A stretch of 64,000 nt of DNA from Thermodesulfobacteriota bacterium. Lineage in GTDB: Bacteria; Desulfobacterota; BSN033; UBA1163. Both the position numbers and the translations under genes were made by a program. The notes beneath the pieces are model-generated. The model did not search any database. It saw nothing but the letters and a program-made list of their open reading frames with translations, and had not been told where the DNA came from. The stretch covers positions 25,319 through 89,318 of the forward strand of contig JASEHH010000003.1 of NCBI GenBank assembly GCA_030017685.1, in the 5' to 3' direction. Below, one piece after another: positions 24,306-44,042 of this stretch. How positions within the stretch are numbered: position 1 is the first letter of the stretch; every line of letters begins with the position of its first letter.

Positions 24306-24821
24306 ATGAAAGAACGAACAGGAATTATAACCATGAAGGGAAACCCCTTAACTCTAATCGGAAACGAGCTCAAAGTCGGTGACGTCGCACCTGACTTTGT
24401 CGCCTTGAACAATGATCTCTCCCCAATAAAATTTTCATCGTTTCGTGGCAAAATCTGCATTCTCTCGTCAGTGCCTTCCCTTGACACACCGGTCTGTGAT
24501 ATGGAGACTCGAAGATTTAATGAAGAGGCAAGCCGTCTGGGTCCGGATGTGATGATTTTAACCATCAGCATGGACCTCCCCTTTGCGCAGAAACGCTGGT
24601 GTGCGGCAAGCGGAGTGGATAAGGTTCAAACCCTGTCAGATCATCGCGATGCCTCTTTCGGCACCTCATATGGGGTGTTGATTAAAGAGCTGCGGCTCCT
24701 TGCCAGGGCTGTCTTTCTGGTGGATCGGAAAGGGACCCTTCAATATATCCAGATCGTCAAGGAGATGACGAGCGAGCCGGACTATGAAGCTATCCTGAAT
24801 GCCTTAAAAAAATTGACATGA
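24306..24821 (+). CDS. tpx: thiol peroxidase (Tpx, atypical 2-Cys peroxiredoxin)
   Basis: Translation shows GDVAPDF, the peroxidatic-Cys region VPSLDTPVCD and a resolving-Cys region RWCAA. An AAGGAGG RBS is present. Confidence 0.8.
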   Translation: MKERTGIITMKGNPLTLIGNELKVGDVAPDFVALNNDLSPIKFSSFRGKICILSSVPSLDTPVCDMETRRFNEEASRLGPDVMILTISMDLPFAQKRWCAASGVDKVQTLSDHRDASFGTSYGVLIKELRLLARAVFLVDRKGTLQYIQIVKEMTSEPDYEAILNALKKLT

Positions 24822-35054: not shown

Positions 35055-35606
35055 ATGAGAAAAAAGTTATTCCATCAGGGGATTTTCATATTTCTCTTGT
35101 TACTGCTCCTTCTCCCCCTTTCCAATGCGGAAGCGAAGAAAAAGGTGGAGTTGGTTGGGAGAGAGATACTTAATTTTACCCTACCCTCCACCCAGGATCG
35201 TGTGATCACTTACGCCGATGAGTATTATGGCAAGTACCACCTGGTCATCACCTTTTTCCCTGCGGCCTTCACACCCATCTGAACAGGCGAGATGGAGGGC
35301 CATCAGAGGAACCTCTACCTCTATGAGCGCTTCAACGCCCGGGTCCTGGGCGTCAGTAGGGACGATGTGATAACTTTAAAATACTTTGCCAATAGCCTCG
35401 ATTTAACCTTCCCTCTCCTTTCCAATGTCACCTCTTTTCTGGGTGTCAGTGTCGATGCTCAACCTGATGGTAGGCCCATCTTCAGCAGGCGGACGATTAT
35501 CATCGACAAGGCAGGTATCATTCGTTATGTGAGGGATGGTTCGCCGGATTTCAAGGATATCCTCCTCTTCCTTAAAAAACTGAACCAGAAAGGAGGAAAA
35601 CCATGA
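35055..35606 (+). CDS. secreted PrxQ/Bcp-type peroxiredoxin with in-frame TGA at the peroxidatic Cys codon (candidate selenoprotein, or otherwise a nonsense pseudogene)
   Basis: Track ORFs 35055..35282 and 35292..35606 are in the same frame, separated only by TGA at 35280-35282. The translation ...VITFFPAAFTPI[TGA]TGEM...ARVLGVSRDD...FPLLSN aligns with PrxQ FFPxxFTPVCTTE...GVSxDS...FPLLSD, placing the TGA exactly at the catalytic Cys. A hairpin gatgg-aggg-ccatc starts 9 nt downstream. Confidence 0.55.
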
Positions 35607-42346: not shown

Positions 42347-42831
42347 TTACAGCCTCCTCTGAGATGGAAAGTCGAATGTGGAACGCGGAGGGTGGTTTTT
42401 AAAAAATCTGCTTCTACTTTCCACATTCCACTTTCCACACTCTGATGTTATAGATACCAAAATTTCCATGCCCAAACAAGAAGTTTTTAGAAGGAAGCAT
42501 CTCCAATATCGTGATGACAGAATGGACTCCAGAGGGGCAGGTAGGCCAGACTCCGAAATCTTTAGGATTGCGGATCATTAGAGGTTTAAGGGAAACTTTC
42601 GTAGTCAATGGAAATGAGGTTTTTATTGGTCTTGGAGCATCTTGAGTCAATCCTTAAGCGGTGCCGCCCTAAATCTTTCCCGCCTGCCCCTCTGGATTTG
42701 GCATTCCCATGGATTTCTATCACTGGAAAAGAGATGCTTACTTTTAGAAAAACACAATGGTATTTTGGACGAAAAAGAGTTAAAATTGTTGTTATGTTTA
42801 ATGGGGGGAAGAGATAAATCATGGAGGTGAA

Positions 42832-43230
42832 ATGATGAAATTATTAACCCTCATCATATCTTTTTCGATGGCTATTGGATGTTTAACCCCTGCCTTTTCT
42901 GCCGAGGCGCCAAGGATAACCAAAGAGGAGTTGAAGGCTTTGCTCGGCAATCCGGATCTCGTCATCATCGATGTCCGTTATGGCAGGGATTGGACCAACA
43001 GTGATATAAAGATCAAAAGCGCCGTAAGAGAAGACCCGGATGATTTAAAATCCTGGGCAAACAAATACTCACCGGATAAGACCATTGTCCTTTACTGAAC
43101 CTGACCCAGTGAAGGGACCAGTGCCAGTCTGGCACAGGAACTAATTGAGATGGGATTTAAGAAAGCCTTCGCCCTCAAAGGCGGCTGGAAGGAATGGTCT
43201 AAAGCAGGCTATCCGATAGAGAAGAAGTGA
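42832..43230 (+). CDS. secreted single-domain rhodanese-like protein interrupted by in-frame TGA codons at the expected active-site Cys (candidate selenoprotein or pseudogene)
   Basis: Signal peptide with lipobox-like AIGC. The translation ...DKTIVLY[TGA]T[TGA]PSEGTSASLAQELIEMGFKKAFALKGGWKEWSKAGYPIE matches the rhodanese pattern (VVLYC......AA..L...GF.......GG...W..AG.P) with a TGA at the Cys position (43096-98) and another at 43102-04. The hairpin gtgcca-gtc-tggcac (43121-43135) lies 17-23 nt downstream. Confidence 0.4.
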
Positions 43231-44042
43231 TATTCTCGCCCATCATTCTCAATGCTGGATCGTCACTAAAAGTTTCTCTGGATCAGCCCATTGATGTTGC
43301 ATTAACCCTTTCGATGGCTGACCTGAAAGCGCTGTTTATCGACCCGGAGAGGGGCCAGGTCCAATATCATGCGATCCGCAACTCTGAGAAGTTTGAAAAG
43401 TATAAAGACCTCACGAAAGGATTGCAATCCTTCGATCTCCAATCCTTAAAAGACCGCGGACAGAGACTTGCCTTCTGGGTTAATATTTATAATGCAGCCG
43501 TGATCCACGGGGTCATCGAGCTGGGGTTAAAGCATTCGGTCAAAGAAGTTTATAATTTTTTTGATCGAATCGTCTATGAGATCGGAGGATATCGTTTCTC
43601 GTTAAACGATATGGAGCATGGCATCCTTCGGGGCAACCGGAGGCCACCCTACCGGCTTTTAAGACCCTGGGGTAAAAATGATCCACGTTTAGCATTCGCC
43701 ACCCTGCCGATGGATGCAAGAATCCACTTCGCATTGGTCTGTGGCGCAAGGTCCTGTCCACCCATTGGATTTTATGAATCCGGGCAGATCGACTTTCAGC
43801 TTCAACTTGCTGCAGAGAGCTTCATCAATAGTTCCCAGGTCAGGATCCTTCCGGAGGATAATTCGATCTTGATTTCAATGATTTTCAAATGGTATAAGGC
43901 AGATTTTGGGGGAAATGATCGAGCGATTGTGGATACGATTCTCAATTTCCTCGATGAGGGGGAGAAAAAGAATTTTTTAAGAGAAAATAAGAATCGAGTT
44001 CGTATTAAGTATCAACCCTATGACTGGAATCTGAATCAATAA
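43227..44042 (+). CDS. DUF547 domain protein
   Basis: 271 aa. The block FWVNIYNAAVIHGVIE...GILRG...RIHFALVCGARSCPP is characteristic of DUF547. GTG start overlapping the rhodanese stop. Confidence 0.55.
   Translation: MIFSPIILNAGSSLKVSLDQPIDVALTLSMADLKALFIDPERGQVQYHAIRNSEKFEKYKDLTKGLQSFDLQSLKDRGQRLAFWVNIYNAAVIHGVIELGLKHSVKEVYNFFDRIVYEIGGYRFSLNDMEHGILRGNRRPPYRLLRPWGKNDPRLAFATLPMDARIHFALVCGARSCPPIGFYESGQIDFQLQLAAESFINSSQVRILPEDNSILISMIFKWYKADFGGNDRAIVDTILNFLDEGEKKNFLRENKNRVRIKYQPYDWNLNQ

Follow-up and report, generated by a model that had tools for sequence, protein, structure and literature searches.

The stretch of DNA analyzed here (64,000 nucleotides from a Thermodesulfobacteriota bacterium, contig JASEHH010000003.1; hereafter, the window) carries at positions 42832-43230 a gene for a rhodanese-like protein whose reading frame is crossed by two TGA codons separated by a single codon. 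The frame reads MMKLLTLIISFSMAIGCLTPAFSAEAPRITKEEL...DKTIVLY, TGA (43096-43098), ACC, TGA (43102-43104) and PSEGTSASLAQELIEMGFKKAFALKGGWKEWSKAGYPIEKK, and closes at a terminator TGA (43228-43230). A preliminary description of the locus, made from the sequence alone, had reported this open reading frame (ORF), its two in-frame TGAs and the rhodanese continuation beyond them, and every one of these sequence facts was correct. The features delimited at the locus, including a putative selenocysteine insertion sequence (SECIS) and codons predicted to specify selenocysteine (Sec, or U in motifs), were the following:

42823-42827, + strand: Shine-Dalgarno sequence GGAGG, read from the sequence, 4 nt before the ATG at 42832 and 7 nt before the ATG at 42835
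42832-43230, + strand: predicted selenoprotein gene, complete, 132 codons including two Sec-UGA, terminator TGA at 43228-43230 (translation, Pfam, NCBIfam)
42832-42903, + strand: predicted signal peptide MMKLLTLIISFSMAIGCLTPAFSA, probable cleavage between AFSA and EA (hydrophobic leader, site conserved in relatives)
43096-43098, + strand: first UGA, residue 89, predicted Sec replacing the conserved partner Cys of C-x-U (TGC 80, TGT 40, TGA 12 among family genes)
43102-43104, + strand: second UGA, residue 91, predicted Sec, invariant in the family, at the canonical catalytic position of rhodaneses (TGA in 132/132; 6mxv alignment)
43105-43227, + strand: 41 codons past the second UGA, encoding the active-site loop, the helix and the C-terminal half of the rhodanese (PSEGTSASLAQELIEMGFKKAFALKGGWKEWSKAGYPIEKK)
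43118-43138, + strand: bacterial SECIS hairpin, core 43121-43125/43131-43135 (GUGCC/GGCAC), loop 43126-43130 (AGUCU)

As read from the sequence, the start codon is the ATG at 42832 (+), with an alternative ATG at 42835; gene callers applied to relatives pick either of them (protein P0003 begins MMKLL and P0005 begins MKLL). Profile searches were performed with the 132-aa product bearing Cys at both TGA positions. The Pfam Rhodanese domain (PF00581) matched residues 30-124 (E=1.4e-14), and the NCBIfam model NF041203, "rhodanese_LYCAU, rhodanese-related (seleno)protein", was matched with 178.8 bits against a curated cut-off of 115, over residues 13-132 of the product and positions 6-126 of the 126 of the profile, in line with the earlier statement that rhodaneses include a selenoprotein family. 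Within the L-Y-C-A-U motif of NF041203, the U position is occupied by the TGA at 43102-43104, and the Cys is absent, the TGA at 43096-43098 standing in the place of TGC or TGT. Membership in the family was kept nonetheless, because UxU is a published variant state of the motif, reported for a rhodanese-related sulfurtransferase from the delta-symbionts of Olavius algarvensis (Zhang and Gladyshev 2007, PMC1976440, Fig. 3A). Selenoproteome reviews refer to the C-x-U family as "COG0607 form 2" or "rhodanese-like form 3, NF041203, CxU, 1 Sec" (PMC9312934; PMC13188914). Judging from the profile matches and from the comparative evidence presented below, the locus very probably encodes a signal-peptide-bearing, single-domain NF041203 rhodanese selenoprotein of the U-x-U subform, in which both UGAs are read as Sec through one hairpin. 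For annotation, this would turn the 88-codon "hypothetical protein" of gene callers into the front part of a selenoprotein of 132 residues; truncation of this kind, at ...LY or ...YCA, affects dozens of database entries.

In order to compare codon usage at the two TGAs, relatives were collected at the protein and at the DNA level. The protein search retrieved 119 relatives, nearly all of them truncated gene calls: about 90 ended in ...YCA, ...YCT or ...YCD, that is, with a stop at the third motif position, and the 22 relatives or clusters closest to the window ended in ...LY or ...FY, with a stop at the first motif position, as in the window. Of 332 loci detected among GTDB species representatives the best 80 were used, and together with 57 loci added by a metagenome scan they yielded a comparative set of 132 family genes that included the motif region, from independent assemblies. 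The GTDB loci (best 80 of 332) belonged mostly to metagenome-assembled genomes (MAGs) of Desulfobacterota/"Deltaproteobacteria", together with two Desulfacinum isolates and some Methylomirabilota and Nitrospirota. Whether orthologues carry Cys or TGA, and one TGA or two, had been raised in the preliminary description, and the answer was clear-cut: the third motif codon was TGA in 132/132 genes, combined with a first codon TGC in 80 genes, TGT in 40 and TGA in 12. The stops within the motif were never TAA or TAG, and genuine terminators made use of all three stops (TGA 36, TAA 23 and TAG 22 in the first 81 genes). The window gene itself terminates with TGA, and UGA is therefore not reassigned genome-wide. 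In nearly all homologues exactly 41 codons followed the second TGA. Cys was found at the first position in most of the family, and at the third position in P0120 (C-T-C), which is nearly identical to the C-T-U gene of locus L123, and in P0151 (C-A-C); such Cys/Sec pairing among homologues is the standard SECIS-independent criterion for selenoproteins (PMC13188914). The carriers of U-x-U at the DNA level were the window and loci L001, L003, L015, L068, L069, L071, L081, L082, L083, L093 and L102, from different projects and habitats (groundwater, lake and soil MAGs of Desulfobacterota type), which amounts to ~9% of the sampled family genes. Among cultured organisms, Desulfacinum infernum DSM 9756 (L022) has the C-x-U form, and none was identified with U-x-U.

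Some variations on the family arrangement were also recorded. Tandem C-x-U rhodanese paralogues lay side by side in L096, L097, L098, L099 and L107 (two matches per locus), one of them reading ...FYCD-U-PNEQTSA and the other ...VYCA-U-xDEATSA, each with its own TGA. A group of more distant homologues (P0150-P0161), with a transmembrane-type N-terminus, read ...ITYC-T-W-PSEESSARAARILLD; their W is either a true TGG or a TGA that a gene caller set to code 4 or 25 rendered as Trp, in which case they would be further selenoproteins.

The preliminary description had placed a SECIS-like hairpin, GUGCCA-GUC-UGGCAC, at 43121-43135, and these coordinates proved correct. The A and U of the loop can pair, the loop being then 3 nt, and two extra lower pairs (CC/GG) are formed across an A.A mismatch within 43118-43138. 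This segment folded at -9.6 kcal/mol (z=-2.5); folding of a 50-nt context of the window sequence alone gave a non-significant value (z=-1.1), and the support for the hairpin therefore comes from comparative data, that is, from covariation. A gapless alignment of 81 sequences and 60 columns, starting at the first motif codon (alignment A2), yielded an RNAalifold consensus with a single 5-bp helix, columns 26-30 pairing with 36-40 around a 5-nt loop, and with double compensatory changes in 4/5 helix pairs. Pair 27-39 was U-A in 57 sequences, C-G in 17 and U-G in 6, and broken in none; as both columns are third codon positions at which the change is silent (Ser AGU/AGC and Ala GCA/GCG), this covariation is selected at the RNA level. 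Pairing was kept in rarer variants of the stem (CUCCGC/GCGGAG in L034, GAGCGCA/UGCGCUC in L048, GUUCC/GGGAC in L066), and the helix was intact in 123/125 complete genes. Sliding of the 3' partner lowered pairing from 76.7% to 20-42% of cells. The stem Ser codon was AGY in 123/124 cases vs. 40% elsewhere in the same genes, the stem Ala codon was GCC in 122/123 vs. 42% elsewhere, and the observed covariation was reached by 0/500 shuffles; as the shuffle and Fisher statistics take no account of phylogenetic relatedness, they are inflated, their direction being unambiguous.

The published model of the bacterial SECIS (bSECISearch consensus, Fig. 2A) comprises a loop of 3-9 nt, an upper stem of 4-16 bp, a G in loop position 1-2 followed by G/U, a distance of 16-37 nt from UGA to loop and a minimum free energy of at most -7.5 kcal/mol (PMC13188914). 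The hairpin at the locus falls within each of these limits: the loop has 5 nt (3 nt if A31 and U35 pair) and the stem 5-6 bp; loop position 2 (column 32) is G without exception, and every loop variant has G or U after it; the loop starts 21 nt after the UGA at 43102-43104 and 27 nt after that at 43096-43098 (alignment A2); and the energy of 43118-43138 is that given above. On these comparative grounds, the hairpin at 43121-43135 is a real SECIS, and the suggestion of an exported single-domain rhodanese selenoprotein with such an element just downstream of its TGAs is strongly sustained, in combination with the NF041203 match. It resembles the bacterial SECIS consensus and that of fdhF in its small apical loop with G and then G/U in loop positions 2-3, in its G+C-rich upper stem of >=4 bp, and in its location in the coding region just past the UGA, with a spacing within 16-37 nt; it differs from the E. 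coli fdhF element in that here a single element must serve two UGAs 6 nt apart. The fdhF SECIS also has a bulged U and a long lower stem, which do not appear to be conserved in the rhodanese hairpin. Two further candidates were discarded. A CCC...GGG mini-stem (43105-43116), considered as an own element for the first UGA, was present in the window and in L001 and absent from L003, and the pairs of an extended lower stem (23-43, 24-42 and 25-41) were only partly conserved. Rfam gave no match over the whole window at gathering thresholds, and a permissive scan of 43060-43200 returned only chance matches to miRNA and snoRNA models.

The catalytic Cys had been placed at the first TGA in the preliminary description, an assignment that was not borne out. 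In alignment to rhodaneses, the nucleophile fell on residue 91: both domains of 6mxv, the best match in the Protein Data Bank (PDB), aligned without gaps with the cysteine of their C-G-x-G-F-R-S motif on this residue, and only in a weak alignment to YnjE, which required a gap of 2 residues, did the Cys fall on residue 89. The stretch U91-P-S-E-G-T96-S97 has the canonical C-X4-[R/T]-S spacing, and in composition P-S-E-G-T differs from C-R-x-G-x-R. Homologue P0010 was modelled with AlphaFold2 (pLDDT 84.5): its central strand runs to Y89, residues 90-97 (C-A-S-P-D-G-G-R) form the loop and the helix begins at 98, so that the third motif position lies exactly six residues before the helix start, where the rhodanese nucleophile sits; Foldseek comparison of this model against the PDB returned generic single-domain rhodaneses only, including GlpE (1gmx) and Sud (1qxn). 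Because of the 6mxv alignment, the loop spacing, the P0010 model and the invariance of the Sec codon throughout the family, the second TGA (residue 91) is the canonical catalytic position and residue 89 is a vicinal partner two positions upstream. The second TGA and the U-T-U-P-S-E-G loop, described earlier as odd, are likewise typical of the family, since the first TGA replaces the conserved partner Cys of C-x-U, converting it to U-x-U. Some homologues have neither Cys nor Sec at the catalytic position (P0010, C-A-S; P0026, S-G-S; L127-L132, Y-D-S-D-P-E-E), and may represent catalytically inactive rhodanese domains that keep the rest of the fold.

A hydrophobic leader was present in 87/87 family members with an intact N-terminus, and a signal-peptidase-I-like site of the A-F-S-A/E-A type was conserved among these leaders. 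The preliminary description had proposed a signal peptide with an AIGC lipobox, and AIGC does stand in the window sequence. The leaders support the predicted signal peptide, and do not support lipidation: a lipobox-like motif ([LVI][ASTVI][GAS]C at the leader end) was found in 14/87 leaders only, and the position of the Cys of AIGC is occupied by C, L, W, Y or G in the nearest relatives. A periplasmic selenoprotein has been demonstrated experimentally in the same phylum (MccSep of Geobacter; PMC13510729).

The origin of the first TGA was analyzed by Fitch parsimony of the Cys/Sec states on a neighbor-joining tree of the mature proteins (~100 residues). At least 4 Cys/Sec changes were reconstructed, with Cys at the root, the exact count being soft, and at least 3 separate U-x-U groups were clear; on this reconstruction U-x-U arose repeatedly, at least three or four times. 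L071 (U-x-U) was 85% identical to L076 (C-x-U) and only ~50% identical to the window. For the 41 post-UGA codons, dN/dS was 0.025 between the window and L081 (13 synonymous and 2 non-synonymous differences), 0.11 between the window and L083, and 0.25 between the window and L003; N-terminal dN/dS values of distant pairs were disregarded, being based on unaligned sequence. These ratios indicate that the codons past the second TGA are under purifying selection between the U-x-U genes of the window's clade.

Slippage, pseudogenization and sequencing error, which the preliminary description had held open as alternatives, can be rejected in the light of this recurrence in independent assemblies, of the repeated origin and of the purifying selection. 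The two TGAs do lie within a short near-repeat (CTGAAC CTGACC), which would suit a sequencing, assembly or slippage artefact, but the identical arrangement is found in independent assemblies with different flanking synonymous sites and the frame is unchanged throughout, leaving an artefact with a practically negligible probability. It is also very improbable, if somewhat less so, that the locus is a decayed copy of a C-x-U gene, now a pseudogene, with a TGY-to-TGA nonsense mutation at codon 89. A single base change would suffice to convert TGC or TGT into TGA, and real decay exists in the family, as shown by a frameshift in L124 and a TAA in L024; yet selection past the first TGA among U-x-U genes is strong (the 13 synonymous and 2 non-synonymous differences between the window and L081), the locus has kept its frame, the length of 41 codons, the SECIS and the overlapping gene downstream, and TGA at codon 89 recurs in at least 12 contigs plus 22 protein clusters, in several separate lineages. 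The TAA of L024 (6259-6390, Desulfacinum hydrothermale DSM 13146) occupies a Gln codon 18 codons after the Sec (GF*KVY vs. GFQKVY in relatives), and reflects either a real pseudogene or a sequencing error, in contrast with the conserved TGAs.

By comparison among relatives, then, the locus combines two conserved coding UGAs, one conserved and covarying SECIS-type hairpin in range of both, a selected downstream frame and a predicted export leader. From this arrangement a mechanism may be proposed. SelB with Sec-tRNASec bound to the single hairpin would recode both UGAs in succession, and the Sec translocon would export the resulting 132-residue precursor, to be cleaved after AFSA. By homology with enzymes of the GlpE/PspE/Sud type, Sec91 (U-P-S-E-G-T-S) would be the nucleophile, to which a donor in the periplasm would pass sulfane sulfur or a related chalcogen. 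More speculatively, residue 89 would act as a vicinal resolving partner, through a Se-S bond in members with C-x-U and through Se-Se in the window gene, and would make the center redox-active rather than a pure sulfur carrier. That the two UGAs become Sec from one SECIS and that the mature enzyme, in the periplasm, passes through a vicinal U-x-U diselenide in its cycle is, as a whole, a tentative proposal, somewhat on the doubtful side.

Several observations weigh against recoding of both UGAs and this cycle, besides the relatedness that inflates the covariation statistics. The hairpin occupies an identical position in C-x-U and U-x-U genes, and the alignment comparison revealed no RNA feature adapted to the first UGA and no second or shifted element beside it. 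Recoding twice in close succession should be inefficient, and translation may mostly end at the first UGA. No selA, selB or selD was found in the 64-kb window by Pfam scans of ~30 ORFs, and no tRNA, hence no tRNA-Sec, by ARAGORN (0 tRNAs); Sec use by the source organism is supported indirectly, because the same window holds a TGA-containing AhpC/TSA ORF (described below). De novo clustering of neighbors at 127 loci gave no family-wide neighbor, and genomic context therefore offers no firm functional clue.

Part of this evidence would also suit a different reading, in which only the second UGA is Sec and the first mostly terminates translation, or is decoded as Trp or Cys through near-cognate suppression; U-x-U genes would then yield little full-length protein or a W/C-x-U protein. 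The SECIS, lying at the same place in C-x-U and U-x-U genes, is positioned for the second UGA; among the 81 aligned genes the second UGA is followed by C in about three quarters, and the first by A, G or U; and the spacing between UGA and SECIS is known to be restrictive in E. coli from studies of fdhF. On the other hand, the 27 nt from the first UGA to the apical loop are within the natural bacterial range of 16-37 nt (PMC13188914), TGA has been retained at the first position across a clade with dS of ~0.4-1.1, and it arose repeatedly and only ever at a redox-active Cys codon, which is the usual signature of Cys-to-Sec replacement. Other close double-Sec motifs are, moreover, predicted in bacteria (Prx-like UxxU, TsoB UxxxxU). 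Decoding of the second UGA alone was accordingly considered unlikely, and the reading of both UGAs as Sec was retained.

Both the family and its U-x-U form are already known, the latter because it was reported by Zhang and Gladyshev (2007). The gene shares with the NF041203 family the leader, the 41-codon tail, the invariant Sec codon and a SECIS hairpin at the same position, and departs from it in that the family motif has a first-position Cys, and the reviews one Sec per protein, where the window has a TGA as well. The UxU form of Zhang and Gladyshev has, as likened by its description, exactly the same arrangement as the window (PMC1976440), but consists of one sentence on contigs of marine symbionts, whereas the form described here comes from groundwater, lake and soil MAGs with repeated origins. 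A literature search for "UxU" with selenocysteine returned no further relevant paper beyond PMC1976440. The documentation of U-x-U is thin, a single sentence from 2007, and the family continues to be given in reviews as CxU with one Sec; what is added here is its ~9% frequency, its repeated origin, the unchanged position of the SECIS and the assignment of the catalytic codon. No new kind of system is revealed, the result being a correct call on an ordinary, if neat, selenoprotein gene.

Among better characterized rhodaneses, the product has the same fold and size as Sud, the polysulfide-sulfur transferase of Wolinella (1qxn; sequence match E=9.6e-6), and as COG0607 proteins of the E. coli PspE/GlpE type, and, like the periplasmic Sud and PspE, it would be exported with a single catalytic residue at a strand-loop-helix junction. 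Those enzymes, however, have one Cys without a vicinal partner and a C-R-x-G-x-R loop, whereas a predicted Sec is found here with Cys or Sec two residues upstream and a U-P-S-E-G-T loop, and the functional likeness is one of analogy. With Prx-like UxxU and TsoB UxxxxU (NF045694) the gene has in common two Sec within a few positions, a presumed redox center of diselenide type, and presumably a single SECIS serving both Sec in bacteria. The eukaryotic SelL, with its UxxU diselenide, provides another closely spaced double-Sec motif. These proteins differ from the rhodanese in having thioredoxin-like or DsbD-like folds and a wider spacing, U-x-U being the tightest of these motifs. If the proposed mechanism were true, U-x-U would represent a repeatedly evolved natural upgrade of the C-x-U selenenylsulfide center to a diselenide, the tightest natural diselenide motif known, and a natural instance in which two UGAs of one mRNA, 21 and 27 nt from the loop, depend on the same bacterial SECIS. 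U-x-U genes would be a convenient natural system for the tolerance of bacterial SelB to UGA-to-SECIS spacing, and for what a vicinal diselenide offers over a selenenylsulfide.

With regard to other genes in the window, the ORF at 35055-35600 (+) encodes an AhpC/TSA (PrxQ-like) protein with a signal peptide and a TGA at 35280-35282, exactly at the peroxidatic Cys (FTPI-U-TGEMEGH; Pfam AhpC-TSA E=2.6e-19 with Cys substituted). This candidate is probably a second exported selenoprotein; no selenoprotein-specific NCBIfam model reached its cut-off with it. A scan of the window for TGA-bridged ORFs returned only artefacts from adjacent genes and missed both real candidates. A thiol-peroxidase-like ORF at 24306-24821 (+), with ordinary Cys and 27% identity to E. 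coli BCP (tblastn), shows that predicted Cys-type peroxiredoxins are kept alongside the putative Sec form.

Immediately downstream of the rhodanese gene, the following feature was delimited:

43227-44042, + strand: DUF547 gene, its GTG start and the rhodanese stop overlapping in GTGA; Pfam DUF547, E=4.4e-38

The GTGA overlap suggests translational coupling of the two genes. As an operon partner, DUF547 is lineage-specific: it was directly downstream in 14/127 loci, all of one lineage and with C-x-U and U-x-U alike, and a divergent Pyr_redox_2/Rubredoxin_C flavoprotein gene located upstream was linked in 11/127 loci, also of one lineage and with both motif states. DUF547, the Pyr_redox_2/Rubredoxin_C reductase, an HNH gene and a lipid-A acyltransferase were syntenic within one lineage only. 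The largest neighbor cluster (19/127 loci, absent from the window) corresponded to a multi-pass membrane protein of 441 aa, without a match in Pfam, which is the most frequent non-syntenic neighbor of the family and lies directly upstream on the same strand, e.g. at L029:3216-4538 (+), ending ~50 nt before the rhodanese start.

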